This document shows, piece after piece, positions 44,813 to 59,612 of a stretch of 64,000 nt of DNA. The notes beneath the pieces were generated by a model. It did no database searches, had not been told where the DNA came from, and saw nothing but the letters and a program-made list of their open reading frames with translations. This stretch comes from Microgenomates group bacterium (GTDB lineage: Bacteria > Patescibacteriota > Microgenomatia > UBA1400 > MFAQ01). Where the stretch lies: NCBI GenBank assembly GCA_049303575.1, contig JBAQNH010000002.1, forward strand, positions 444,541-508,540, in the 5' to 3' direction. Within the stretch, counting starts at the first letter, position 1. Every line of letters begins with the position of its first letter. The translations under genes were made by a program, and so were the position numbers.

Positions 44813-45706
44813 TTGACGGCAAGTCTCAATTCTTGCGATAATGAGAGGTCTATGAAAATAAAAAATCCGTTAGTTATTGTTCTTCCCGTTATTATTCTCC
44901 TCGTCGCTTTTCTTTTAATTTTTGTTTTTAACAAAAAAACCACGACCACCCAAACAAAAGACATTGAAGCCGGTACTAAACTTCTGGTTAATGAACTGGC
45001 TCTAGCCGAGAGACCCTTCACCCTTCTTGTTCCTCATGCTACTAACAAACTTTTTACCTTTGTTACCATCAATGCCGACAAAGCCAAAGCCGCTACCCTC
45101 GACCTCGAGTATCAATCAGGTGACCTGCTTAAAGGTGCTCGGGCAACGCTCGAAACCCCCATTGTCAGTCCTTACATGAAGGCTATCATTCTTGGTAGTT
45201 GTTCCACGGGAGGCAAGTGTTCCTTTGACAAGGATCTAAAATCCGGAACTTTAAAGTTCAAATTAAACTTCGAAGGTCAAAAGGTGACTCATATTCTCAA
45301 AGGCGATTTTGCTTTTGTCACTGGTCAGAACAACCTCCCCGACGGCAAGGTTATTTTTACCCCTTCCAAAGCTACCGCAAGTGATAACCTCATTCTCCTG
45401 AACTCTTTTGGTTTACCCAAGGCAGTCAGCAAGGAGATTGTTCTCTATCCCATCGTCATCTCCGCCGTTGGCGCCAAAAACATTGTTGGTACTCTCACTG
45501 TCAATCAGTCAGGTGTCACCGGTGCCGAGATTTTCGACGGTCAAAACTACCTCCCGCTAACCTACACCGAAAAAGACGGTTCACTAACAATAGCTTTAAA
45601 CAACAAACCTTGGTCTATGAGCGCCGAAATCGTAAGAGATGACGAAAAGGGAACCAAAGAATCTCTCAATCTCTATCTTCTCGGCCCCATCGTTCTCTAT
45701 AAATAA
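44813..45706 (+). CDS. Hypothetical exported/membrane-anchored protein
   Basis: N-terminal TM (PLVIVLPVIILLVAFLLIFVF) followed by a Thr-rich segment. No recognisable motif. Confidence 0.35.
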   Translation: MTASLNSCDNERSMKIKNPLVIVLPVIILLVAFLLIFVFNKKTTTTQTKDIEAGTKLLVNELALAERPFTLLVPHATNKLFTFVTINADKAKAATLDLEYQSGDLLKGARATLETPIVSPYMKAIILGSCSTGGKCSFDKDLKSGTLKFKLNFEGQKVTHILKGDFAFVTGQNNLPDGKVIFTPSKATASDNLILLNSFGLPKAVSKEIVLYPIVISAVGAKNIVGTLTVNQSGVTGAEIFDGQNYLPLTYTEKDGSLTIALNNKPWSMSAEIVRDDEKGTKESLNLYLLGPIVLYK

Positions 45707-45744
45707 GTGTTATGCTAGATGGAGTGAGAAGGTGTTTCTCTATA

Positions 45745-45895
45745 AATTAAATAGCGTGTGGCCTCACAGGAACCCCCTTTGAGGATACGAGGAAGAAGGT
45801 TGTCGATAATCTGCGGATGCCTTCTGGTTACGCCTTTCTAACCAAAAGGGTACATAGTACCCAAGATCGGTGATTCACAAATCTCACACTAGTTA
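45745..45895 (+). ncRNA. glmS_ribozyme: glmS ribozyme (GlcN6P-dependent self-cleaving riboswitch)
   Basis: AUAGCGUG...GAGGAUACGAGGAAGAAGGUUGUCGAUAAUCUGCGGAUGCCUUCUGG...AACCAAAAGGGUACAUAGUACCCAAG...AUCUCACA aligns block by block with the remembered Bacillus glmS ribozyme (A^GCGCC cleavage site, GACGAGGAUGGAGGUUAUCGAAUUUUCGGCGGAUGCCUCC core, AAACCAAGGGGGUGACUCCUUG pseudoknot arm). It sits immediately 5' of glmS. Confidence 0.8.
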
Positions 45896-45915
45896 TTAAT
45901 TGCTATGCAAAACCT

Positions 45916-47640
45916 ATGTGTGGAATTGTTGGATACCTCAGTCATGAGGAAAAACCTGTTGTCTCAATTTATCGCGGTCTAAAAAGATTGGAGTACCGAG
46001 GATACGATAGTTGGGGAATAGTATATTTTAAAAATAATCGGTTAGTGTCTCAAAAAGAAGTTGGAAAACTTAAGTCAGAGCCGCTGGATCTTCCTGAGTC
46101 GGTGCTGGCCTTGGGTCATACTCGTTGGGCAACCCATGGAGGAATTACTAAGGCAAATTCTCACCCCCAGTTTGACTGTACCGGCAATATTGCTTTGGTT
46201 CATAACGGCATAATTGAAAATTATTATCACCTAAAAAAAGAATTAGCCCAAAGAAAGCATCAAATTGTTTCTGAGACAGACACAGAATTGGTCGCTCATT
46301 TAATTGAGGAAAAGGTAGCGAAGGGGATATCAACAAGAGAAGCGGTGAAACAAGTATTTTTAAGATTAAAAGGGTATAACGCTCTCGTTGTAATGGACAA
46401 AATACAAAAGAGATTGTTTGCCGTAAAAAAGGGCTCGCCCCTTATTCTCGGTCTTAGTCAGAAAGTAAACTGGATTGCCTCCGACATCAATGCCCTAAGT
46501 GAAGCAGAAGAACTAATTGTTCTTCTGGACGATGAGTTGGCCGAAATCAGTGAAAACGGTGTCCGAGTAATAAACGTCAGTGATGGCAGAGAAATTCCCA
46601 AGCAAAGAATAAAAATGGTTGAAATAGAAAAGGAGAGTGAGATGGGAGAATACCAAAGCTTTTTAGAAAAAGAAATTAACGAACAACCCCAAGTTCTGGA
46701 AAGAATTGCCCAAGAAGACGGAGTGCAGATGAAAAAGATAATCGCGTTGGCTAAGAAAATGGATAAGGTGATTTTGGTTGGTTGTGGAACTTCATACTTC
46801 GCCGGATTGGTCGCCGCCGAAAAGCTAATTAAAAAACTTGGTAAGTGGGTAATCACTGTCTTGGCCTCTGAGTTTGATACCTATGCCAGCCTTGTTGACA
46901 AAAAAACTTTAATCATTGTTTTGACACAATCTGGGGAAACGATTGATGTTCTAGACGCCATTACCAAAGCAAAACAAAAAGGAGCCACTATTACCTCAGT
47001 TGTTAACGCCAAATACTCAAGTGTGCAAAGGATCTCTGCTGTTTGTCAGATGCTTTCTTGTGGTGTAGAAAAATGTGTAGCTTCCACGAAATCATTTGTC
47101 GCTCAAATGGCGGTTTTTGACAAAGCTCTTGGAATAGATTTAAGTCAAAGAATTAAAAATGTTAAATGGATTCTCAAAAACAAAAATAAGATTGATCCCC
47201 TGGCAAAAATGATTAGCCAAAAACAACACCTCTTTATCTTAGGTAGAGGCAAGATGTTGCCCCTTGCTCTGGAGGGAGCTTTAAAAATAAAAGAACTCAG
47301 CTATATCCACGCTGAAGGAATGGCTGGAGGCGAACTCAAACACGGAACACTCGCCCTCATCGATAAAGACAGCATTTGTATTGTTCTTGTTTCAAAAGAA
47401 AATACCAACGAAATGCTGGCCTCCTCCTTGGAGGTAAAAGCCAGGGGAGCCAGAGTAATCGGTATTGCTCAAAGCAAAGAAGATGTTTTTGACGAATTTT
47501 TACCCATTAGGGGAAAAGAAGATGATGAACAAACAGAAGCTGTCGTTTGGTTGCAACTACTATCGGAAAAGATTTGTCATCTAAAACATCTTGATCCGGA
47601 CAAGCCGAGAAATCTAGCCAAAAGCGTTACGGTCAAATAA
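45916..47640 (+). CDS. glmS: Glutamine--fructose-6-phosphate aminotransferase
   Basis: MCGIVGY (Cys2 nucleophile), a GHTRWATHG block, and two SIS domains including GCGTSYFAG and SQSGETIDVL; 574 aa. Confidence 0.9.
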   Translation: MCGIVGYLSHEEKPVVSIYRGLKRLEYRGYDSWGIVYFKNNRLVSQKEVGKLKSEPLDLPESVLALGHTRWATHGGITKANSHPQFDCTGNIALVHNGIIENYYHLKKELAQRKHQIVSETDTELVAHLIEEKVAKGISTREAVKQVFLRLKGYNALVVMDKIQKRLFAVKKGSPLILGLSQKVNWIASDINALSEAEELIVLLDDELAEISENGVRVINVSDGREIPKQRIKMVEIEKESEMGEYQSFLEKEINEQPQVLERIAQEDGVQMKKIIALAKKMDKVILVGCGTSYFAGLVAAEKLIKKLGKWVITVLASEFDTYASLVDKKTLIIVLTQSGETIDVLDAITKAKQKGATITSVVNAKYSSVQRISAVCQMLSCGVEKCVASTKSFVAQMAVFDKALGIDLSQRIKNVKWILKNKNKIDPLAKMISQKQHLFILGRGKMLPLALEGALKIKELSYIHAEGMAGGELKHGTLALIDKDSICIVLVSKENTNEMLASSLEVKARGARVIGIAQSKEDVFDEFLPIRGKEDDEQTEAVVWLQLLSEKICHLKHLDPDKPRNLAKSVTVK

Positions 47641-47797: not shown

Positions 47798-48229
47798 ATG
47801 TTTACTGGACGCTACTACCACAATCTAGAAGCCAAGGGGAGATTAGCAATACCCCAGTCCTTCAGGGACGAACTCGGATCAGGTGGCGTAATCACCTGGG
47901 GGCTCGATGGCTGTCTATTTCTTTTCCCCAAATCATACTGGCAGAAGCTTTCCGAGAAGCTGGCCTCGCTCTCACTAACCAACCCAGGAGCCCGAAACTT
48001 GACGCGTATCTTAGTACAGTCCGCCGTGGAATTGAATCTCGACAGTCAGGGTCGGACACTCATACCAGAACATCTCAGAGAACAGGTCAATATAAAAAAA
48101 CAGGTGGTAGTCGCCGGAACCCTTACCAGAATTGAAATCTGGGACAGAGACGCCTATCACGAGCACCTTGATTTAATAGCGCAAACGATTAACCAAGCCG
48201 ACCAAGGCTTAGCCGCAATCGACCTATGA
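47798..48229 (+). CDS. mraZ: Transcriptional regulator MraZ
   Basis: MFTGRYYHNLEAKGRLAIPQSFR (the MraZ DxxxR-type first repeat), a second half with a similar motif, 143 aa, and position as first gene of the dcw cluster. Confidence 0.85.
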   Translation: MFTGRYYHNLEAKGRLAIPQSFRDELGSGGVITWGLDGCLFLFPKSYWQKLSEKLASLSLTNPGARNLTRILVQSAVELNLDSQGRTLIPEHLREQVNIKKQVVVAGTLTRIEIWDRDAYHEHLDLIAQTINQADQGLAAIDL

Positions 48230-49161
48230 CAAACGTAATCGAAAGACACTACTCGGCCTATAAAGGCGAGTTAGCCAAACTCTACAGTTTTAAGAAAGGT
48301 TACCTCTTCTTAGACCTTACTCTAGGGGACGGTGGACACACCCAGGAAGCCTTAGAAGCCGGTTGTCGTGTTGTTTCCTTTGACATCGATGATGAGGCCA
48401 TTAAAAGGGCTATAAGTTTCGTCCCGGAAAAGTTCTCTCCCCAAATTATCGAACCGGAAAATATTTCGGAACTGGCCCCTAAAGACTTTAACTGGATTAT
48501 CATCCACAGTAATTTTACGAAAGTAGAAGAGATTGTTAAAAAGTTAGAACTCCCTCTCTTTGATGGCATCATGGTCGACCTCGGACCTTCCCAATTTCAA
48601 GTTCTTTCCGAAGGCCGTGGCTTTAGCTTTGCCAAAGATGAGCCTCTAGATATGCGTCTTACCAAAGATCTCGGTGTTACCGCCGCCGATCTTCTCGCCG
48701 TCTTAAACGAAGGTGAGTTAGTTGAGTTGTTTACTCTAGGAGACGAACCCTTTGCCAAGCCCCTGGCTCGTATTATTGTCAAACAAAGAACCATAAACCC
48801 AATAAAAACCACCAAACAGCTCGCCGATCTGGTTTTTAAAGTCAAAAAAGGTCGTCCTGGGAGAATTCATCCAGCCACCCAAGTCTTTATGGCTCTCCGC
48901 ATGGTCGTCAATCTTGAACGGGAAAACATCAACCTACTTTTACCCCAACTTCCCCAGCTTCTCAAAAAAGACGGCACCATGGGCATAATTAGCTTTCACT
49001 CAGGTGAAGACAAACTAATTAAAGACTTCATTAAGACCGAAGAAGAAAAGGGTGACATCAGCGCTATTAACGAAAAACCGATTGTTCCTTCGACATCTGA
49101 ATTATTAATCAGTCCTAGAACCAGAAGTGCCAAACTTAGACTCGCTAAAAAAACTAATTAA
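48226..49161 (+). CDS. rsmH: 16S rRNA (cytosine1402-N4)-methyltransferase RsmH/MraW
   Basis: DLTLGDGGHTQ matches the RsmH DxTxGxGGHS motif. The gene follows mraZ with ATGA overlap. Confidence 0.85.
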   Translation: MTNVIERHYSAYKGELAKLYSFKKGYLFLDLTLGDGGHTQEALEAGCRVVSFDIDDEAIKRAISFVPEKFSPQIIEPENISELAPKDFNWIIIHSNFTKVEEIVKKLELPLFDGIMVDLGPSQFQVLSEGRGFSFAKDEPLDMRLTKDLGVTAADLLAVLNEGELVELFTLGDEPFAKPLARIIVKQRTINPIKTTKQLADLVFKVKKGRPGRIHPATQVFMALRMVVNLERENINLLLPQLPQLLKKDGTMGIISFHSGEDKLIKDFIKTEEEKGDISAINEKPIVPSTSELLISPRTRSAKLRLAKKTN

Positions 49162-49435
49162 CTACAAAACCGCGTTCACCATTACCGCGATGGCCTTTGT
49201 TGGCCTTGCCGCCATCAATCTCATCGGTACCAACGCGCTTTCTACAGAAGGCATCGCCGTCAGTGAAGCTGAGACTCAAACCCTAAAACTGGAAAAAGAA
49301 AATCAGATCATTTCTGTTAAGATCGAAGAAGCCTCCCAGCTAAAAAATATTGAAGTACTGGCCGAGAATCGAGGGTTCATAAGATCAAAAAACATTGTCT
49401 TTGTACCCACCGCTCCGACCTTTGCCCAAAGATAA
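49127..49435 (+). CDS. ftsL: FtsL-like small bitopic division protein
   Basis: A single TM (FTITAMAFVGLAAINLIG) followed by a short periplasmic region, positioned between rsmH and ftsI. A plausible alternative start is the ATG at 49190. Confidence 0.5.
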   Translation: MPNLDSLKKLINYKTAFTITAMAFVGLAAINLIGTNALSTEGIAVSEAETQTLKLEKENQIISVKIEEASQLKNIEVLAENRGFIRSKNIVFVPTAPTFAQR

Positions 49436-49438
49436 TCG

Positions 49439-51115
49439 ATGTTAAACTCACAGGGTAATCTCATCCAAAAACGTCTCAAGACAATCATTTTTTTAATCCC
49501 TATTCTTTGTGTGATAATCGTCGGACGCTTATTCTACTGGCAGATCATTCGCGGACCGGAGTTGCAGACAAAAGCCAGCAACCAACACGAAACCACCACT
49601 TATCTTGAAGCCAAAAGAGGCAACATTCTTGATTTTGAAGGCAACATCCTTGCTGGAACCAAAAATCTTTATCATCTTTTTGTTTACAAACCCCAGTTAA
49701 CCATCGGTAACAACGATTTAATTGAAAAACTAATCGAAAATATGGACAAGGAACCGGAAGCAACCGACGAGCCGGATATAAGAGAGTATCTTAAGGGTCG
49801 TTTGGCTTTGGACTCAAACTGGGTTTCTCTCAAACACTATCTCACTCCCGACGCCAAAGACCGGATTGAGAAACTAGGGATTGCCGGGCTTGGATTTGAA
49901 GATGAGTATGTTCGTTTCTATCCCGAAGCCAGTATGTCAGCACACCTCTTGGGTTTTGTTGGTCAAGATGCTGCCGGAGAAGAGCAGGGATATTTTGGTC
50001 TGGAAGGATATCAAGATAGACTTTTACGTGGTCGGGGAGGCAAGATTAGAACCGAAAAAGATGCCAAAGGCAACCCCATCTTAATCGGCAACTACCAGTT
50101 TCTTCATGCCATTGAAGGCAAACCAATCACCACTACAATTAGCAAAAAAATTCAGTACCTTACTGAAAAAATGCTCAAGGAAGGTATCGAAAAATATCAA
50201 GCTTCTGCTGGAAACGTTATCATCCTTGAATCAAAAACAGGCAAAGTAAGAGCCATGGCCTCTTTTCCTAACTATGATCCAGGTAAATTTTCCGAGTTTC
50301 CTAATACCAGTTACAAGAATCCCAATGTTGCCGATCTTTTTGAGCCAGGATCTGTTTTCAAGGTCTTAATCATGGCCGCCGGTCTAAATGAAAAAGTGGT
50401 CGCACCGGAAACTCGATGTGATATCTGTGCTGGATCATTGGTTATTGGTAAGTACGCCATCAAAACTTGGAACGAAGTCTATCACCCCAACACCACCATG
50501 ACCGAAACCATCATAAACTCCGACAATACCGGTATGGTTTTTGTCGCGAGAAAACTGGGTAAGGATAAGTTTGTTGAGTATCTAAAAAAATATGGTCTGG
50601 GAAAGAAAACCGAGATCCAGTTGCAGGAAGAAGTGTCCGGCGTAATTCGCGAATCCAAAGACTATGGTGATATCGATCTGGCTACCAACTCCTTTGGGCA
50701 GGGTATTGCCGTTACTCCCATTCAGCTGGTCGCGGCGGTAAACACCATTGCTAATGATGGTTTCTACCTCAAACCAACCATTATTGAAAAAGAAGTTAGC
50801 AAAGGTAAACCCGTTCTCTCGGTAGAAGCAGTTGACCAAATGACCCAGATCATGATCCAAGCTGTCGATATGGGAGAAGCAAAATGGGCCAAACCTCAGG
50901 GACTGATTGTTGCCGGTAAAACAGGTACCGCCCAGATCCCAATTGAAGGCCATTACGATGCTGAAAAAACTATCGCCAGTTTCATTGGGTTTTTTCCAGC
51001 CAACAACCCGCAGTACACTATGTTAGTGACCCTTCGCGAACCTAAAACGTCACCTTGGGGATCCGAAACCGCCGCTCCTCTCTGGTTTGCAATTGCCAAA
51101 CAATTGCTGCTTTGA
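49439..51115 (+). CDS. ftsI: Penicillin-binding protein 2/3-type transpeptidase (FtsI)
   Basis: N-terminal TM, then GSVFKV (SxxK), SDNTG (SxN) and KTGTA (KTG) in the canonical order. Confidence 0.85.
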   Translation: MLNSQGNLIQKRLKTIIFLIPILCVIIVGRLFYWQIIRGPELQTKASNQHETTTYLEAKRGNILDFEGNILAGTKNLYHLFVYKPQLTIGNNDLIEKLIENMDKEPEATDEPDIREYLKGRLALDSNWVSLKHYLTPDAKDRIEKLGIAGLGFEDEYVRFYPEASMSAHLLGFVGQDAAGEEQGYFGLEGYQDRLLRGRGGKIRTEKDAKGNPILIGNYQFLHAIEGKPITTTISKKIQYLTEKMLKEGIEKYQASAGNVIILESKTGKVRAMASFPNYDPGKFSEFPNTSYKNPNVADLFEPGSVFKVLIMAAGLNEKVVAPETRCDICAGSLVIGKYAIKTWNEVYHPNTTMTETIINSDNTGMVFVARKLGKDKFVEYLKKYGLGKKTEIQLQEEVSGVIRESKDYGDIDLATNSFGQGIAVTPIQLVAAVNTIANDGFYLKPTIIEKEVSKGKPVLSVEAVDQMTQIMIQAVDMGEAKWAKPQGLIVAGKTGTAQIPIEGHYDAEKTIASFIGFFPANNPQYTMLVTLREPKTSPWGSETAAPLWFAIAKQLLL

Positions 51116-51141
51116 CGCCAACACTGTTAAAATATAAACAC

Positions 51142-51507
51142 ATGCAAAATCCATTCAGGATACACAGGATCAGTTTTAAGCACGCCTTTGATGGCTTTGT
51201 TTACTCTGTCCGCACTCAGCCAAATTTTCGCTTTCACCTTCTAGCTACGTTTATAGTCGTCTTGCTCGGTATCTATTTCTCCATCAGTATCATCGAATGG
51301 CTCATTTTGGTTTTTACTATCAACACTGTTCTGGCTGCCGAGATGGTCAATACTTCCATTGAAGCCATGGTTGACCTTATCACTCTCGAACGTAGAGCCG
51401 ACGCCAAAATAGCCAAAGACGTTGCCTCGGCTATGGTTCTTGTCTCTGCTATTCTCTCTATAATCGTCGGTTTAATAATCTTTTTACCCAAAATACTCAA
51501 CTTCTAA
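51142..51507 (+). CDS. dgkA: Diacylglycerol/undecaprenol kinase family protein (DgkA/UdpK)
   Basis: Three TM segments. EMVNTSIEAMVDLIT and AKIAKDVASAMVLVSAI match DgkA catalytic motifs (E..NTAIE..VD, KD.gSaAV). The track ORF starts at 51055; the ATG at 51142 avoids the overlap with ftsI. Confidence 0.7.
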   Translation: MQNPFRIHRISFKHAFDGFVYSVRTQPNFRFHLLATFIVVLLGIYFSISIIEWLILVFTINTVLAAEMVNTSIEAMVDLITLERRADAKIAKDVASAMVLVSAILSIIVGLIIFLPKILNF

Positions 51508-52533
51508 ATGGATTTACTACTTGGAATCTTAATTTTCTCCTTTATCGTTCATGCCTTTGCCATAGTTCCTTTTGTAAATTTCCTTTACCATCTTAAGTTT
51601 TTCAAAAACAAAACGGCTATTTCCAAAGATAAAACCGACGAAGCCTCTGTTCACATTCGTTCAAAATCTAGAACTCCGGAGGGTGGGGGACTACTAATCA
51701 TTGTCATTACCGGTCTCATTTTTGCCTTTGCTCTACCTTTATTAAGACGCTTGGGTTTTGAAATTACCCACGTTTATCCCATAAACGACGAGATTAATGT
51801 TATCTTTTTTACCTTTATTTCCTTTGGTTTACTCGGTCTCTACGACGACATCATCAAATTTTTTGAGTTGGATAGGGAACAGGGTTACACCGGCCTCAAA
51901 ACTCGTTACAAATTTCTCATTCAGGTAACTTTGGGTCTCATCATTGGCGCTATGATGTATCTCAATCTTGGTATCGACATTATTCACATTCCTTTCTTTG
52001 GTGTCATTCATTTTGGTCTTTGGTTTATTCCTCTGGCCGCTTTCCTTGTGGTCACTTTTGCCAACTCTGTAAACATTACCGATGGTATGGATGGTTTGGC
52101 TTCAGGCCTTTTGATGATTAGTCTGTTTGGCTTTCTTTTACTTTCTACTTCTATTCTCGACACCCCCCTTTCCATCTTTATTGCTCTCTGGCTTGGTGGT
52201 CTTATTGCCTTTCTTTATTTCAATGTTTTTCCCGCCCGTCTATTTTTGGGAGACGTTGGAGCCTTAGCTTTCGGTGCCGCTTTTGCCACGGTTGGTTTAC
52301 TTACCGGGAAAGTGATTGCCCTTTTAATTATTGGACTACCTTTCTTAGTTGATGGTTTAAGTAGCGTCCTACAGATTTTCTGGGTAAAAGTATTTCATCG
52401 TCGCATTTTTCCTATTGCCCCGCTCCACTATCTTCTCCTGAAAATTGGTTGGTCTGAACCAAAAATTGTTCAAAGAGCATGGCTTGTCGGCATCATGTTA
52501 GTTATCTTCGGTATCTGGTTAGCCATCATTTAA
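51508..52533 (+). CDS. mraY: Phospho-N-acetylmuramoyl-pentapeptide transferase
   Basis: ANSVNITDGMDGLASG (MraY DD/NxxD), the LGDVGALAFGAAFA region, and ~10 TM segments. Confidence 0.9.
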   Translation: MDLLLGILIFSFIVHAFAIVPFVNFLYHLKFFKNKTAISKDKTDEASVHIRSKSRTPEGGGLLIIVITGLIFAFALPLLRRLGFEITHVYPINDEINVIFFTFISFGLLGLYDDIIKFFELDREQGYTGLKTRYKFLIQVTLGLIIGAMMYLNLGIDIIHIPFFGVIHFGLWFIPLAAFLVVTFANSVNITDGMDGLASGLLMISLFGFLLLSTSILDTPLSIFIALWLGGLIAFLYFNVFPARLFLGDVGALAFGAAFATVGLLTGKVIALLIIGLPFLVDGLSSVLQIFWVKVFHRRIFPIAPLHYLLLKIGWSEPKIVQRAWLVGIMLVIFGIWLAII

Positions 52534-52536
52534 TTT

Positions 52537-53616
52537 ATGCTACGCCTCAAAGGCAATCATAATCGTCTCCCTACGACCATCCTTATTGCTGGAATATTGG
52601 CAGCTTGTTTTGGTCTCGTGGCGATATATGATGCTTCTGTTGTTGATGCTTTCAGGACTTTTGGCGACAAATTTCACTATGTCAAACAACAATCAGTTTG
52701 GATTGTCTTCGGCATTATCGTTGCTTTGATAACCTCAAATATTCCTATGTCCCTTTTCAAAAAATATGCCCACATTCTTTATGGTATTTCACTTTTTCTG
52801 ATGGTCATTGTCCTTATTCCCGGTATCGGTTCAAAGTTTCTTGGTGCAAGACGTTGGATTGATATTGGTTTCACCGTTATCCAACCATCGGAACTTCTTA
52901 AAATTACTCTGGTTATCTATCTTGCCAAATGGCTCGAACAGGAGCGTAGTCTCAAACACTTCCTCATTCTTCTGGCAGTGAATCTAGGTTTGATTATGCT
53001 TCAGCCGGATCTTGGTACCGCCCTCATCACCGTTGGTGTCTCCTTCATGGTTTACTATCTCTCGGGAGCCAAAATCAAGGAAATTTTTTCTTTTAGCGCT
53101 ATCTTGGCTGTAGCCATCAGTGCTTTAATTATTTTTTCTCCTTACCGTATGGACAGGGTAAAAACCTTTATGGATCCAACGACTGACCCCCTAGGTGCTT
53201 CATACCACATCAACCAAGTCCTCTACGGTCTCGGTTCGGGAGGATTCTCCGGTGTTGGTGTTGGTAAATCCCGTCAAAAATATGCCTATCTTCCCGAAGC
53301 CACAACTGACTCTATTTTTGTGATCATCGCCGAGGAGTTTGGTTTCCTTGGTAGCAGTCTCTTTATCCTTACTCTCACCGGACTTCTCCTGGCCTCTTTC
53401 AAGGTCGCCCTGAATGTTCATGATAAATTTGATAAGCTACTGTCTAGTAGTATCACTTTATTATTTTTAATTCAGATATTTGTGAATCTAAGTTCAATGG
53501 TTGCTCTAGTTCCACTCACCGGCGTACCCTTACCCTTCATTTCCTATGGTGGCTCAAGTCTGGTTACCAACTTCATTGCCCTAGGTCTTCTTATTAATAT
53601 CTCCAAAAGAGTATGA
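52537..53616 (+). CDS. ftsW: SEDS-family peptidoglycan glycosyltransferase FtsW/RodA
   Basis: QPSELLKITLVIYLAKWL and the C-terminal PLPFISYGGSSLV are SEDS signature regions. Confidence 0.85.
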   Translation: MLRLKGNHNRLPTTILIAGILAACFGLVAIYDASVVDAFRTFGDKFHYVKQQSVWIVFGIIVALITSNIPMSLFKKYAHILYGISLFLMVIVLIPGIGSKFLGARRWIDIGFTVIQPSELLKITLVIYLAKWLEQERSLKHFLILLAVNLGLIMLQPDLGTALITVGVSFMVYYLSGAKIKEIFSFSAILAVAISALIIFSPYRMDRVKTFMDPTTDPLGASYHINQVLYGLGSGGFSGVGVGKSRQKYAYLPEATTDSIFVIIAEEFGFLGSSLFILTLTGLLLASFKVALNVHDKFDKLLSSSITLLFLIQIFVNLSSMVALVPLTGVPLPFISYGGSSLVTNFIALGLLINISKRV

Positions 53617-54692
53617 AACCCTTAATTGCTTTTACCGGCGGTCACCACAACAGTACCTTAGTAATTGCTAAATCATTTCAAAAAGAAGACTACCCCATTA
53701 TCTGGATCGGCCACAAATTTGCTTCGAAGGGGGATAAATCACTCTCGGCTGAATATCAGGAAATTACCGGATCAGGAATCCATTTTCTGGAACTAAAAAC
53801 CGGCAAGTTTTATCAAAAATTTAACCCACTTGAATGGCTTAAGATTGCCTTCGGTTTCTTCCAGGCCTTTATTTATTTAATAACCTACCGACCAAAATTA
53901 ATCTTTTCTTCTGGTGGTTATCTTTCGGTTCCGGTGGTCATTGTTGGTTGGCTTCTCGGCATTCCCTCAATCACCCATGAACAAACAGTTATTGCCGGTT
54001 GGGCAAACAAAGCCATCTCACCTTTCGTTAAGAAAATTCTTCTAACTCACGTCTCATCACTCCCAAACTTTCCCCAAGAAAAATCTGTTGTTGTTGGTCT
54101 CCCGATAAGGAAAGAACTTTTAAACAATAAATACACCAAAAAATTTGATCCCAAACTTGTCTACATTTCCTGTGGCAAACAAGGTTCTCACACGATAAAC
54201 AAAGCTCTTTTTCCAATTCTTCCCCAACTTGTTAAAAAATTTACGGTAGTCCATCAAACAGGTGCTAATACACTAACCAAAGACTCCGACCGTGCTAGAA
54301 GAATCAAAGAAAAGCTAGGGGAGTACAAAGACCGTTATATTTTTGCCCCTTATTTTTTTGCCGAAGACGCCGCTACTTACATACGCTCCTCGACAATTGT
54401 TGTTGGTCGAGCCGGGGCTCACTCTGTCTACGAACTAATGGTTCTTGAAAAAAAAGCGGTTCTTATTCCTATTCCTTGGGTGTCTCACAATGAACAATTT
54501 TTAAATGCCAAACTCGCCGAAGAACAAATTGGCAGCACTATTCTGGAAGAAAAAGATCTCACCCCGGAGTCTTTATATCAGGCTATCATTGAGTTAGTTA
54601 AACGTCCATCAATCAAGCCATCAACCAAATTAGCGACCAATGCTACAGAGAAGATTACTCAAATCATCCGTGAACACCTCCAAGAGACTTAA
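53613..54692 (+). CDS. murG: UDP-GlcNAc:lipid I N-acetylglucosaminyltransferase MurG
   Basis: FTGGHHNSTL (G-loop) and GGYLSVPVVIVGWLLGIPSITHEQTVIAGWANK, which compares with MurG GGYVSGP...IPVVLHEQN.IAG..NK. Confidence 0.85.
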   Translation: MKPLIAFTGGHHNSTLVIAKSFQKEDYPIIWIGHKFASKGDKSLSAEYQEITGSGIHFLELKTGKFYQKFNPLEWLKIAFGFFQAFIYLITYRPKLIFSSGGYLSVPVVIVGWLLGIPSITHEQTVIAGWANKAISPFVKKILLTHVSSLPNFPQEKSVVVGLPIRKELLNNKYTKKFDPKLVYISCGKQGSHTINKALFPILPQLVKKFTVVHQTGANTLTKDSDRARRIKEKLGEYKDRYIFAPYFFAEDAATYIRSSTIVVGRAGAHSVYELMVLEKKAVLIPIPWVSHNEQFLNAKLAEEQIGSTILEEKDLTPESLYQAIIELVKRPSIKPSTKLATNATEKITQIIREHLQET

Positions 54693-55479
54693 TCGACGCG
54701 CTCGTATCGGTTTGGAAACGTTAAAAATAAACTCCAAGAAATTTTTACCGATTCTTGTCTTGATTCCTCTTATTTTTTTTCTTAATAGTCTTTTTATTAT
54801 CAAAAAAATAAACTGTTCTTTTAACAATGAAGTCTGTCCTCAAGAAATACAAATAGTTCAAAATAATTTGCTTGGTTCAAACTCGCTTTTTATAAATCAA
54901 AAAGATCTACTTACTTTTTTTAAAGCGGTTTATCCGATAGATAATATGAACATCGGCTATCACGCCTTTAACACACTCAATATTAATCTCAAGGGCAACA
55001 ACCCTTACGTCGAGGCGGACGTCTACTTAGTTACTAGCCTTCCCAAGCTCTCCATGGACCAAGCTCCCAGCACTACCGACTCGGCTGGTTGGTGGGTCAA
55101 GCCATCGGGAGAACTGGAGAACTTCGTTCTCACCCAAAAAGGACTGGGTTTTAATCTTTGGGAAAACGGCTCGATGTCTCAAACGGCGACAACGGGAGCC
55201 AATATAAGTTTCATTTTTATCGAAAAACCAACCCCGGAAATAGTGTCTTCGGTCTACAAAATGGTGAGGTTAGTTCTTAAATATCTTGATGTATCCGATA
55301 TTTATATCGTTGGCCGTCGCTCTTTCTTGAGCCGAACAGGTGAACCTGATATCATAATAGGTGTACCTTTTGACGAAGGAAGCTTGGTTTCTGCTTTACA
55401 ATCACTAAGCTACCTCGCTACAATTAAAAAAGACGCAAAAGTGATCGATTTAAGTTTTAAAAATCCGATCATAAGATAA
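54640..55479 (+). CDS. ftsQ: FtsQ/DivIB-like division protein
   Basis: An N-terminal basic stretch and single TM (ILVLIPLIFFLNSLFII), then a POTRA-sized periplasmic domain. Located between murG and ftsA. The start is uncertain because it overlaps the end of murG. Confidence 0.5.
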   Translation: MLQRRLLKSSVNTSKRLNRRARIGLETLKINSKKFLPILVLIPLIFFLNSLFIIKKINCSFNNEVCPQEIQIVQNNLLGSNSLFINQKDLLTFFKAVYPIDNMNIGYHAFNTLNINLKGNNPYVEADVYLVTSLPKLSMDQAPSTTDSAGWWVKPSGELENFVLTQKGLGFNLWENGSMSQTATTGANISFIFIEKPTPEIVSSVYKMVRLVLKYLDVSDIYIVGRRSFLSRTGEPDIIIGVPFDEGSLVSALQSLSYLATIKKDAKVIDLSFKNPIIR

Positions 55480-55483
55480 AAAT

Positions 55484-56758
55484 ATGGCTAAACCACAAGG
55501 AATAAATGCGATTGATATCGGCTCCAGTAAAATTACCTGTTTGATTACTGTTCCCGGTCAAGACGACTCAAAAATTAACTTAGTTGGTGCCGCCACAGTC
55601 ACCAGTCGTGGAGTTAGAAGAGGACAAATTGTCAACATTGAAGAGTGCGTCAGTTCCATTACCGATTGCGTCGAGTCAGCCGAAAGAATGGCCGGGTTTG
55701 GCGTTGACTCTGCTTTTATTTCCATCTCCGGCGAGAATATTTTGTCTCAAAATTCCCAAGGCTTAGTTGCCATTACCGAAACAGAGGGAGAAATTGGTCA
55801 CGACGATGTTTTTCGAGTAATCGAAGCCGCCAGAGCCGTGTCCTTGCCCACCTCTAGAGAAATCATTCATGTTTTACCCCGTGAGTTTATTGTTGATGGT
55901 CAGCATGGCATTAAAGACCCGACCGGTATGTCCGGCGTTCGTTTGGAGACCGAGGCCCATCTCATTACCGGGCTTACTCCTGCTATAAAAAATGTCACTC
56001 GTTGTGTCAATGAACTGGGCGTCAATGTTTCCGGTCTTGTTTTTACCGGTCTTGCTTCTGCCGAGTCGGTTTTAACCGATACGGACAAAGAGCTCGGTGT
56101 AGTTCTCGTCGACATTGGCGGGGGCACTACCAGTGTTTGTATTTATGTTGAAGGCTCCTGTGTTTACTCTGCCGTAATTCCTGTCGGCGCCAAAAAAATC
56201 AGTGATGACATTGCCATAGGTTTACAAATCAGCGTCGATAGTGCTGAAAAAATCAAACACTACTTAGGTAAAGCTAAACATGAAGCCGATCCTTCAGATA
56301 CCAAAAGTCTAGACGAAATTGATCTATCTAAAATTGGTATTACCGAAGACGTCAAAAAAGTTTCTCGCAAAACAATTGTTGAAGGCATAATCAGACCTCG
56401 TCTAAATGAAATCTTCACCATGGTTAACCATGTTATCAAACAGTCCGGTCTCGAAGGTCAGACACCTGCCGGAGTCATCGTCACCGGCGGAGGTGCTCTA
56501 ACTATTAACTGTACCGAAAGTTGCCGACGTGTCATGCAACTCCCAGCCAAGCTAGGTGTCCCAACTGGTCTTCATGGCCTTACTGATGAAATTAACTCTC
56601 CTGTTTACGCCACCTCGGTTGGTCTTGTTCTCTATGGCTATCACCACAAAGAACAACAGTCTGCCCCAAGATTAAAACTGTCTGGTATGATAAAAGGAAT
56701 TCCCGGCAAACAGTTTGTCGGAAAAGCAATCGATTTTATCAAATCATTCTTACCATAA
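55484..56758 (+). CDS. ftsA: Cell division protein FtsA
   Basis: [15 protein letters not shown] (actin-fold phosphate-1) and [15 protein letters not shown] (phosphate-2); 424 aa; directly upstream of ftsZ. Confidence 0.85.
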
Positions 56759-57932
56759 AGTGGGCCTAGTCAAACCGGATACAAACACCTTCGCCAAAAT
56801 AAAAGTCCTCGGAGTTGGAGGAGGCGGTAACAACGCCGTAAACTCCATGATTTCCTCAGGAAAAATCAAAGGAGTTGAGTTTATTGCCGTCAACACTGAT
56901 ATGCAGGCATTAATAAACTCCAATGCCGATATCAAACTTCAGATTGGTGAAAAGGGTACTAAAGGTCTAGGTTCGGGATCAAATCCCGAGATTGGTGCCC
57001 AAGCTGCCGAAGAATCACGCGAAAAAATTAAAGAAGTCCTTATGGGTGCTGATATGGTTTTCATTACTGCCGGTGAAGGTGGCGGAACCGGAACTGGTGC
57101 TGCTCCCATCATCGCTGAAATCTCCAGGAAAGATGTCGGTGCTCTCACCGTTGCTGTCGTTACCAAGCCTTTCCTTTTTGAAGGTGCTCGTCGTCGTGTT
57201 CAAGCCGAGGAGGGGATTGAGAATCTCAAAGATAAAGTTGACACTCTAATTGTCATTCCCAATCAAAGACTGATCGACATGGCCAAAAAAGAACAAACTC
57301 TTCTTGATGCCTTCAAAATGGCCGACTCTGTACTGGGTCAGGGGGTTCAAAGTATCTCCGATCTCATCACTATCCCCGGGCTTGTCAACGTTGACTTTGC
57401 CGATGTCAAAACCGTTATGACCAATGCTGGCTCTGCCCTTATGGGTGTCGGAAGAAGTTCTGGTGAAAAACGTGCCATTATTGCTGCAAACGCTGCTGTT
57501 AGCTCTCCTCTGTTGGAAATCAGTATCGAAGGTGCTCGAGGCATTCTCTTCAATATTGCCGGTAGTAAGAGTTTAACTCTCACCGAAATTAACGAAGCTT
57601 CATCCATCATTACTCAGTCTGCTGATCCAGATGCCAACATCATCTTCGGCACCACAATAAGAGAAGATCTTGGTGATGAAATTCAAATTTCCGTCATCGC
57701 TGCCGGTTTCGATGAAAACCGTCGTCATTTTGGTAGTATCCCTTCCATAAATCCCTATCTCACTCCCAAGCCGGTTATTTCTCAAGAACCGGAGAAGCCA
57801 CTTGATGAATCTGTCGAAGAGTCCCAGCCCTCAGCGCAAGTTAAGCTTGCCGGCAAATACAAAGTGCACCACAACGAGGTCGATATCGAAGACGATCTGG
57901 ACATCCCAGCATTCCTTAGAAATAAATATTAA
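56715..57932 (+). CDS. ftsZ: Cell division GTPase FtsZ
   Basis: [15 protein letters not shown], the tubulin signature [10 protein letters not shown], and the C-terminal DIPAFLRNK conserved peptide. Confidence 0.9.
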
Positions 57933-59138: not shown

Positions 59139-59612
59139 CTAATTTAAACTAGCTATGGTGAAGTTTAGATATGAGGCAAACGTCACCCACAAGATATATG
59201 GCACCATTAACCAACTTGCCACTTTATTCACTTTTTCAAACGAGACTATCGTTATCAAGATAAATATCCATAAAACCAGTATTTCCCCAAAAGCCAACCA
59301 AAAGTTTCCCATACCGAAGAAAAGGACAGACCATAAAACATTAAGAACGAGTTGAGCGGCAAACAGCTTCAAAGACATTCGCACCTTATTACTCATTTTT
59401 GTCGACCAGACAAGGTAAAGAGCCACACCCATCATGATAAAAAGAGACGTCCAAACTGGTCCAAACAGCCAAGATGGAGGGATCCATACTGGTCTATTAA
59501 TCGTCAAATACCAGCTTTGGACAGCCGGTGTCGTAAAAAGGGAACCTAAGACTCCAGCCGAAAGGGAAATCGCTAAAGAGAGTAACAATCGCCAAAAACC
59601 TTTTATCTTCAT
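59139..59612 (-). CDS. tspO: TspO/MBR family tryptophan-rich sensory protein
   Basis: WYLTINRPVWIPPSWLFGPVWTSLFIMMGVALYLVW matches the TspO core (WY..L.KP.w.PP..fg.vWt.LY..mg); five TM segments. Confidence 0.8.
   Translation of the reverse strand: MKIKGFWRLLLSLAISLSAGVLGSLFTTPAVQSWYLTINRPVWIPPSWLFGPVWTSLFIMMGVALYLVWSTKMSNKVRMSLKLFAAQLVLNVLWSVLFFGMGNFWLAFGEILVLWIFILITIVSFEKVNKVASWLMVPYILWVTFASYLNFTIASLN

Follow-up and report, generated by a model that had tools for sequence, protein, structure and literature searches.

The glmS ribozyme (RF00234) is a self-cleaving RNA in which glucosamine-6-phosphate (GlcN6P), bound in a preformed pocket, is the cofactor of cleavage (PMC2258182, PMC11602151). 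The canonical core is braced by a P3/P3.1 pseudoknot, by the adenine-rich IL4 of P4 and by a GNRA L4 loop that docks on a G-C pair of P1 (PMC11602151). In Bacillus subtilis, the 3' fragment left by cleavage is degraded by RNase J1 (PMC10810187, PMC5473149). The subject of the present analysis is the 5' leader of glmS in a 64 kb stretch of contig JBAQNH010000002.1 (referred to as the window, i.e., the whole stretch of DNA analysed), which derives from a Candidatus Collierbacteria genome of the Candidate Phyla Radiation (CPR). Based on sequence analysis, this leader is predicted to contain a functional glmS ribozyme-riboswitch, a reading to which we assign a probability of about 0.78. The finding reveals no new kind of system, as the glmS ribozyme family is among the best-studied riboswitches. 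It would, if correct, extend a classic metabolite-dependent ribozyme to the CPR, where gene regulation is almost unstudied.

The glmS variants of Deinococcus-Thermus, natural ribozymes from outside the Firmicutes that were reportedly described by McCown, Roth and Breaker in 2011, are said to keep the catalytic core, to alter the core-supporting substructures (P3-P4) and to add stems within the core. Measured against that description, the Collierbacteria element has no extra stem and is instead distinguished by point substitutions at a junction of the core and by a truncated P4. With the canonical representatives of RF00234 from B. subtilis, B. anthracis and Thermoanaerobacter tengcongensis (Tte), it has in common the position in the glmS 5' leader, the A/GCG cleavage site, P1 with the pairs C10-G23 and U11-A22, the ACGAGG active-site strand, P2, P2.1 (CGA/UCG), P2.2 with a bulged nucleotide 6, the G7-C52 pair, the GCGGAUGCC block, and a P3 hairpin directly 3' of P2. 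The differences from these canonical RNAs include U26 where they have G26 as third base of the 26·7-52 triple; U4.G54 and G5.U53 where canonical P2.2 has two C-G pairs; a G8/A25 mismatch and a C9-G24 pair at the base of P1; and a loop between P2.1 and P2.2 that is shorter by 1 nt. Furthermore, the P4-IL4-P4.1-GNRA arm is replaced by AAAA, a hairpin of 5-6 bp with a variable, non-GNRA loop and a conserved 22-nt segment, while P3.1, if present, is merely a 4-bp CGCC/GGUG helix at the 5' side of L3. Constructs restricted to the core (P1-P2.2) cleave, and provide a functional precedent for a reduced periphery (PMC7125110, PMC10810187). Those constructs are laboratory truncations, whereas the Collierbacteria RNA retains P3 together with a conserved, non-canonical 3' domain.

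Family match, conservation and core of the leader

The whole window was scanned against Rfam 15 using the gathering score of each family as the cut-off, and RF00234 was the sole family to exceed it. The match covers positions 45742-45900 of the + strand and the full model (1-167) with 45.6 bits versus a gathering score of 37 (E value 2.1e-7). It lies on the same strand as glmS and ends 16 nt ahead of the ATG at 45916. The product of this gene is identified as GlmS by the NCBIfam equivalog TIGR01135 and contains a GATase and two SIS domains. Scanned by themselves, the core and P3 (45735-45847) yield 40.4 bits, which already surpasses the gathering score. The core pattern ACGAGGA-N(10-30)-GCGGAUGCC has a single match in the window, and 100 shuffles that preserve dinucleotides gave no match. 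A sequence-only reading of this DNA had proposed a glmS ribozyme in the leader of glmS and a covariance-model search as its check; the proposal is borne out by the RF00234 score and by the GlmS open reading frame (ORF) downstream. The AGCG cleavage region which it named is present at 45753-45756, and the core block UACGAGGA...GGUUGUCGAUAAUCUGCGGAUGCCUUC at 45786-45824. The third element that it described, a AACCAAAAGGG...CCCAAG arm, does exist at 45840-45865, but it is a short substitute hairpin and not the canonical P4/P4.1. Judged from its sequence, the leader of Collierbacteria glmS is a real glmS ribozyme-riboswitch, i.e., a somewhat divergent member of a known RNA class. The coordinates of its parts and of the neighbouring features are collected in Table 1.

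Table 1. Features of the glmS leader and its surroundings, in window coordinates
Feature	Position	Strand	Basis
Block TGnTAWRCT (TGTTATGCT), candidate extended -10	45708-45716	+	conserved in all aligned leaders
Predicted cleavage site A-1/G1	45753-45754	+	aligned to RF00234 consensus A/GCG; invariant in 12 leaders
P2.2 5' strand, C2 G3 U4 G5, bulged U6, G7; partner 45811-45815	45755-45760	+	PMC7125110 pairing scheme
P1 hairpin CCUCACAGG / CCUUUGAGG, loop AACCC	45762-45784	+	minimum free energy (MFE) fold
Core strand U26-A27-C28-G29-A30-G31-G32 (UACGAGG)	45786-45792	+	invariant in 12 leaders; RF00234 alignment
P2 5' strand AGAAGG, partner CCUUCU at 45820-45825	45794-45799	+	MFE fold, Rfam alignment
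P2.1 3' strand UCG (residues 43-45), part of cofactor pocket	45803-45805	+	pairs with C28-A30 in 12/12
UCUGCGGAUGCC	45810-45821	+	sequence
C52 U53 G54 C55 G56 (P2.2 3' strand), then G57-A-U-G of the GCGGAUGCC block	45811-45819	+	invariant in 12 leaders
P3 hairpin GGUUA / UAACC, loop L3 CGCCUUUC at 45831-45838	45826-45843	+	RNAalifold, MFE fold
AAAA linker (45844-45847) and hairpin GGGUAC-AUA-GUACCC (GGGUACAUAGUACCC; 45848-45862)	45844-45862	+	alignment, RNAalifold
Conserved 3' segment AAGAUCGGUGAUUCACAAAUCU, candidate P3.1 strand or local stem-loop	45863-45884	+	alignment
Remaining leader: CACAC, UUAUUAAUUG, AAAACCU	45885-45915	+	blocks conserved across clade
glmS coding sequence (CDS), 574 aa, starts MCGIVGY	45916-47640	+	TIGR01135 541.8 bits (cut-off 418), NF001484 557.4 bits
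ORF of 297 aa, TTG start, between recO and ribozyme	44813-45706	+	
dcw cluster mraZ-rsmH-PBP-mraY-ftsW-murG-ftsA-ftsZ	47798-57932		
Glycan-synthesis locus, ~42 kb, almost uninterrupted	89-42318		

The comparison set comprised eleven further glmS loci of the Collierbacteria clade, with nine distinct leader sequences and GlmS identities to the window ranging from 98% to 61%; 12 leader sequences were aligned (alignment A3). At all eleven loci RF00234 scores above threshold (40.8-50.5 bits), always in the sense orientation and directly upstream of glmS, and the same element was recognised by eye in two further leaders (L021 and L022). The most distant loci share with the window a GlmS identity of 0.62-0.64, a nucleotide identity of the CDS of 0.67-0.69 and an identity at third codon positions of 0.42, while the leader from A-1 to the ATG is 0.79-0.88 identical. 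Across the clade GlmS identity falls to 61-62%, whereas leader identity is 79-98%, and 73% in one deletion variant (L018). Positions 45748-45764 are invariant in the alignment, and the stretch 45782-45846 includes five variable columns only. This degree of conservation argues for strong purifying selection on the ribozyme leader. With the helices defined from the literature, 98.5% of pair cells are standard in the 12 leaders, versus 31-44% when the partners are slid by 1-3 columns, and the seven drawn helices are each 92-100% paired. Of the drawn helices, the nested ones (P1, P2, P3 and the P4-like hairpin) are also recovered by MFE folding. The sequence-only reading had named the folding of P1, P2 and P2.1 with the conserved core as a further check, and these helices, together with P2.2, can be drawn with that core in the 12 orthologous leaders.

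Residue numbering and the pairing scheme follow Andreasson et al. 2020 (PMC7125110), with window coordinates computed from the sequence. In that scheme, P2.2 is formed by C2-G56, G3-C55, C4-G54, C5-G53, a bulged A6 and G7-C52, P2.1 by residues 28-30 with 43-45, and the base triples are 26·7-52 and 27·28-45; the same source provides the roles of residues 26-30 and of residues 43-45, which belong to the cofactor pocket (PMC7125110). The corresponding P2.2 in the window includes C2-G56, G3-C55, U4.G54, G5.U53, the bulged U6 and G7-C52, and is 100% paired in the 12 sequences. P2.1, with C28-A30 as its 5' strand, is formed by C28-G45, G29-C44 and A30-U43, and P2 by six pairs that are 100% paired and invariant. 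Compared with the RF00234 consensus, the core strand aligns to GACGAGGA with a U where the consensus has its first G, and 45811-45819 aligns to CGGCGGAUG with a U at position 53; at the level of pairs, C5-G53 is changed to G.U and a G-C pair of P2 to A-U. The catalytic and pocket residues, namely C2, G3, G7-C52, C28-G29-A30 with U43-C44-G45, G56, G57 and the GG of ACGAGG, occur without variation in all 12 leaders. G45792, the second G of ACGAGG, is the residue which we take to be the active-site guanine, equivalent to Tte G40 and Ban G33. Each helix of the double pseudoknot P2/P2.1/P2.2 is 100% paired without variation inside the clade; since these helices are invariant, it is their agreement with the family model that supports them, and not covariation within the clade.

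P1, P3 and the peripheral domain

Variation within the element is found mainly outside the core. P1 has 6-10 bp among the orthologues, and towards its distal end both sequence and length vary with the pairing always kept; two of its pairs are changed on both sides. The receptor pairs C10-G23 and U11-A22 of P1 are conserved in the 12 leaders. In P3, the single change is from U-A to U.G, in one orthologue (L006). The short hairpin at 45848-45862, which occupies the place of P4/P4.1 in canonical ribozymes, follows an invariant AAAA and has a stem of 5-6 bp that is invariant apart from the sixth pair, either C-G or U-A. Its loop varies (AUA, AACA, AUCA, AAA, CACA, or AAAA) and is in no case of the GNRA type. 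The conserved sequence GUGA at 45870-45873 was considered as a canonical GNRA L4 and rejected, as a closing helix could be drawn in no orthologue. It might be speculated that the invariant A runs beside the hairpin stand in for the adenines of IL4.

Two arrangements may be envisaged for the conserved 3' segment. GGUG at 45869-45872 is a candidate for a P3.1-like 3' strand, and its partner would be CGCC (45831-45834), on the 5' flank of L3. These strands pair in 11 of 11 sequences, in a geometry unlike that of canonical P3.1, and the one lineage that varies here (L007) has CGUC/GGCG, i.e., two one-sided changes with all four pairs retained. Alternatively, the segment might form the local stem-loop AGAU-CG-GUG-AUU-CAC-AA-AUCU, which is the solution given by the MFE model. 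Other partners for the P3 loop were rejected. The pair CCUUU/AAAGG, read from the aligned leaders, consists of adjacent strands that compete with P3 and the hairpin, and in a systematic helix scan it ranked merely among many non-varying alternatives. For CUUU/AAAG close to the start codon, conservation fails in the window and in two orthologues (L002 and L014), and this pair is absent from the list of the helix scan. Long-range pairings of the 5' strand GUGUGG, with CACAC in the MFE fold and with CUAUGC in the top 'covarying' helix of that scan, were tentatively ascribed to the promiscuity of this invariant strand rich in G and U.

The invariant strand GUGUG (45756-45760), which forms the 5' side of P2.2, is complementary to the conserved CACAC at 45885-45889 and is paired with it in the MFE fold, and the helix scan shows GCGUG at the cleavage site (45754-45758) to be complementary to UACGC (45829-45833), which spans the end of P3 and its loop. 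Either pairing may represent a folding trap, an alternative with a regulatory role, or chance.

Proposed mechanism and rival explanations

In the proposed mechanism, the leader would be transcribed, probably from a conserved extended -10-like element ~40 nt 5' of the cleavage site or, alternatively, by read-through from the upstream ORF. From the analysis of its pairing, it would adopt the P1/P2.2/P2/P2.1 core with its double pseudoknot, which P3 and a much reduced peripheral domain would brace. Going by family membership, accumulating GlcN6P would bind the preformed pocket as catalytic cofactor and the RNA would be cleaved between A45753 and G45754. As in B. subtilis, the glmS mRNA fragment with its 5'-hydroxyl might then be degraded by RNase J, so that less GlmS is made, and the outcome would be negative feedback on the supply of UDP-N-acetylglucosamine (UDP-GlcNAc). 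By analogy, GlcN6P-triggered self-cleavage followed by mRNA decay is the most likely function. At least 90% of CPR genomes keep rnj, the gene for RNase J (PMC12641178). The reduced periphery does not preclude function, because the glmS core has been found to cleave co-transcriptionally without the peripheral domain at slow elongation rates (PMC10810187). A riboswitch mechanism via sequestration of the Shine-Dalgarno sequence is unlikely, because this genome hardly uses such sequences and glmS has none.

A number of observations weigh against a functional ribozyme. In all 12 sequences, G26 of the 26·7-52 triple is replaced by U45786, which alters the triple, and P2.2 includes two wobble pairs. 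The effects of these changes can be gauged from the source data of PMC7125110, i.e., frequencies among 385 natural sequences and cleavage rates (kobs) of the minimal Tte core, for which a consensus kobs of ~0.064 s-1 was derived from statements in that paper. C4U has a natural frequency of 0 and a kobs of 2.4e-5 s-1 (~2,700-fold loss), C5G a frequency of 0.35% and a kobs of 7.5e-6 s-1 (~8,600-fold), G53U a frequency of 0.70% and a kobs of 5.1e-5 s-1 (~1,250-fold), and G26U a frequency of 0.58% and a kobs of 1.0e-3 s-1 (~60-fold), while the double mutant C5G+G26U is at the detection floor (PMC7125110). In the periphery, the 58 model positions of P4/P4.1 contribute just ~5 of the 45.6 bits and include many non-canonical pairs, and neither the canonical IL4 adenine platform nor a GNRA L4 was identifiable in the Collierbacteria leaders. 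Covariation within the clade is confined to P1 and one hairpin pair, apart from which P3 and the candidate P3.1 show just isolated changes of one partner; there is little of it because the core never varies. Finally, the deletion variant (L018; Ga0075830_141, 2060-2075, equivalent to window ~45847-45875) has lost 29 nt that include the hairpin and GGUG. It keeps the core and P3 (40.8 bits), and its glmS carries an indel and encodes a shorter protein of 565 aa, whereas a sister contig (L021) with a nearly identical leader is intact. This locus might represent a natural variant without periphery or an assembly error, the latter being possible because its copy of glmS also has an indel.

The deviations from consensus gather at the P1/P2.2 junction (U4, G5, U6, G8, C9-G24, A25, U26, and U53), and the combination of U4, G5, U26 and U53, none of which reaches 1% among the natural ribozymes, is fixed in 12 of 12 leaders. 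The other substitutions of this junction are A6U (natural frequency 16%, kobs 0.096 s-1), A8G (44%, 0.090 s-1), A9C (28%, 0.0093 s-1), U24G (23%, 0.0157 s-1) and U25A (7%, 0.0286 s-1), among which A6U and A8G are regarded by the authors as slightly activating general rescuers in the Tte core (PMC7125110). Both rescuers are present in the Collierbacteria core. Moreover, pairing is kept despite the substitutions, C5G with G53U giving G.U and C4U giving U.G. Position 26 is conserved but not absolutely defining for glmS ribozymes.

Three other explanations were weighed against a functional ribozyme-riboswitch. That the RF00234 match is due to chance or an annotation artefact might be argued from a score just 8.6 bits over the gathering threshold and from the poor alignment of the 3' half. 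It is refuted by the comparative data, as orthologous matches occur at eleven further related loci where variation keeps the structure; the E value of 2e-7, the absence of any other Rfam match in 64 kb, the correct strand and place before glmS, and the 0 of 100 shuffles with the core pattern also contradict it, and we consider it extremely improbable. More weight, if still little, is given to the possibility that the element is a conserved descendant of the glmS ribozyme that cleaves negligibly or not at all and has been retained for another role, e.g., as a structured leader setting mRNA stability or translation, or for ligand binding without catalysis. The rarity of U4, G5, U53 and U26 (absent or <1% in the 385 natural ribozymes), single-substitution costs of ~60- to 8,600-fold in the Tte core with C5G+G26U dead, the missing IL4 and GNRA L4 stabilisers, and the partial loss of the periphery in the deletion variant would all be in keeping with such a relic. 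Strict invariance of the catalytic and cofactor residues, at loci where synonymous sites are saturated, is nevertheless hard to explain without catalysis; the restored G.U pair of C5G and G53U, the U.G pair kept by C4U, the presence of A6U and A8G, and a score that still exceeds the Rfam curated threshold likewise make a relic unlikely.

A marginally smaller chance is accorded to an active ribozyme whose main role would be to process a longer recO-orf-glmS(-dcw) transcript and to uncouple glmS from the upstream genes, or whose cleavage would have an effect other than decay by RNase J. The sigma-70-type scan predicted neither promoter nor terminator on the + strand between 45706 and the ribozyme, the order recO - ORF - ribozyme - glmS is conserved in clade loci with the flank available, and the scarce use of Shine-Dalgarno sequences implies initiation rules unlike those of Bacillus, all of which would suit this explanation. 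It is countered by the conserved extended -10-like motif 37-45 nt 5' of the cleavage site and by the near universality of RNase J in the CPR; the classical mechanism requires nothing that is missing here.

Within the reading as a functional glmS ribozyme, the leader might belong to a distinct natural subclass with a rebuilt P1/P2.2 junction, in which a mini-hairpin, together with a short alternative pseudoknot, takes the place of the large stabilising P4-IL4-P4.1 arm. This proposal is tentative and we lean slightly against it. If true, and if cleavage is efficient, it would represent a second way in which evolution keeps the glmS active site assembled, built from substitutions that are singly near-lethal in the Thermoanaerobacter core, and would provide a natural scaffold that is compact, at ~120-130 nt counted from the cleavage site. 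The co-occurrence of rare substitutions with a trimmed periphery constitutes a natural test of the epistasis maps for Thermoanaerobacter and Bacillus.

Expression signals, distribution and genomic setting

The candidate extended -10 reads TGTTATGCT or TG(G/A)TAAACT across the aligned leaders; it is a plausible promoter element by its sequence and would set the start of the transcript near 45722-45725. Between this putative promoter and the cleavage site lies a potential small hairpin, GAGAA-GGUGU-UUCUC (45726-45740), for which the orthologues have a similar but weaker pairing potential and which might protect the uncleaved 5' end. The scan for two-hexamer sigma-70 promoters and terminators returned none on the + strand from the end of the upstream ORF (45706) to the ribozyme. 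Ahead of glmS (45894-45915), a Shine-Dalgarno sequence was not found; matches of at least 4 nt to AGGAGGUGA within the 20 nt ahead of the start codon are present in only 3 of 48 window genes, and the upstream regions are instead rich in A and U.

By GlmS comparison, the nearest public genomes are a Collierbacteria metagenome-assembled genome (MAG), LCDA01000006 (91%), and L002, CAZWYN010000021.1 (95%). The latter is titled 'uncultured Pseudomonadales bacterium', has a leader of the Collierbacteria type, and is probably a mislabelled or contaminated bin. In a large protein collection, the relatives of GlmS cluster tightly at 61-98% identity, with Collierbacteria as the named members of the cluster, and below it there is a gap down to 44%. 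Collierbacteria belong to the Microgenomates group within the Patescibacteria group (NCBI taxonomy), and the impression of a 'CPR-like' genome formed from the sequence alone was correct. In three other Microgenomates loci (Chisholmbacteria, Gottesmanbacteria, and one further lineage), RF00234 was not found upstream of glmS even at an E value of 0.1, and glmS sits there 8-40 nt behind murA, glmU or another gene. Because these loci are without the ribozyme, the element appears to be specific to the Collierbacteria clade among the sampled Microgenomates; being limited in this way to one lineage, it may serve as a useful marker for the retention or loss of riboswitches in genome reduction. A metagenome scan for the U26/U53 core variant (TACGAGGA-NNNN-GG-N(5-25)-TCTGCGGATGCC) returned four Collierbacteria contigs and no wider family. 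Another match to this pattern (L020) lies inside a GC-rich epimerase gene and was dismissed as chance.

Among the papers searched in full text, none names CPR, Patescibacteria or Microgenomates alongside the glmS ribozyme. The class is reportedly known from several phyla beyond Firmicutes and Deinococcus-Thermus (McCown and colleagues, 2011); on that account, its description as classically a feature of those two groups understates the known spread, and a glmS ribozyme in a CPR lineage is a modest extension and not a surprise. Since the score passes the Rfam curated threshold, any Infernal-based annotation would find the element, and that of LCDA01000006, which is public, may already be in the automatic hit list of Rfam. 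Even in a streamlined, Shine-Dalgarno-poor genome, the first committed step of UDP-GlcNAc synthesis would remain under feedback by RNA.

In the window, glmS sits between a 42-kb glycan locus and a cell-wall and division cluster. Both had been noted as the huge glycan locus upstream and the dcw cluster downstream, and both are present, the former from 89 to 42318 and the latter starting at 47798. The glycan locus encodes at least 13 glycosyltransferases, ~9 S-adenosylmethionine methyltransferases, two Wzx-type flippases, Wzy_C, two PMT_2 proteins, GDP-mannose dehydratase-type enzymes, an AsnB-type amidotransferase and an initiating sugar transferase. The G+C content is much lower in the first 16 kb (0.28-0.33) than in the rest (0.39-0.44), which suggests that this section is variable or horizontally acquired. 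From the glycan locus to dcw, the order is DUF4012, recO, an uncharacterised ORF, the ribozyme and glmS. No Pfam match was found for the uncharacterised ORF of 297 aa; a counterpart of 276-287 aa occurs at the same place in every clade locus for which the upstream flank was retrieved, and all of these loci keep the order from recO to glmS. Downstream, mraZ directly follows glmS in most clade loci, and in three it comes after 1-3 ORFs on the reverse strand. Just past the division cluster of the window, the - strand (59139-59612) encodes a membrane protein of the TspO/MBR family (E value 3e-49), which is unexpected for a reduced CPR genome.

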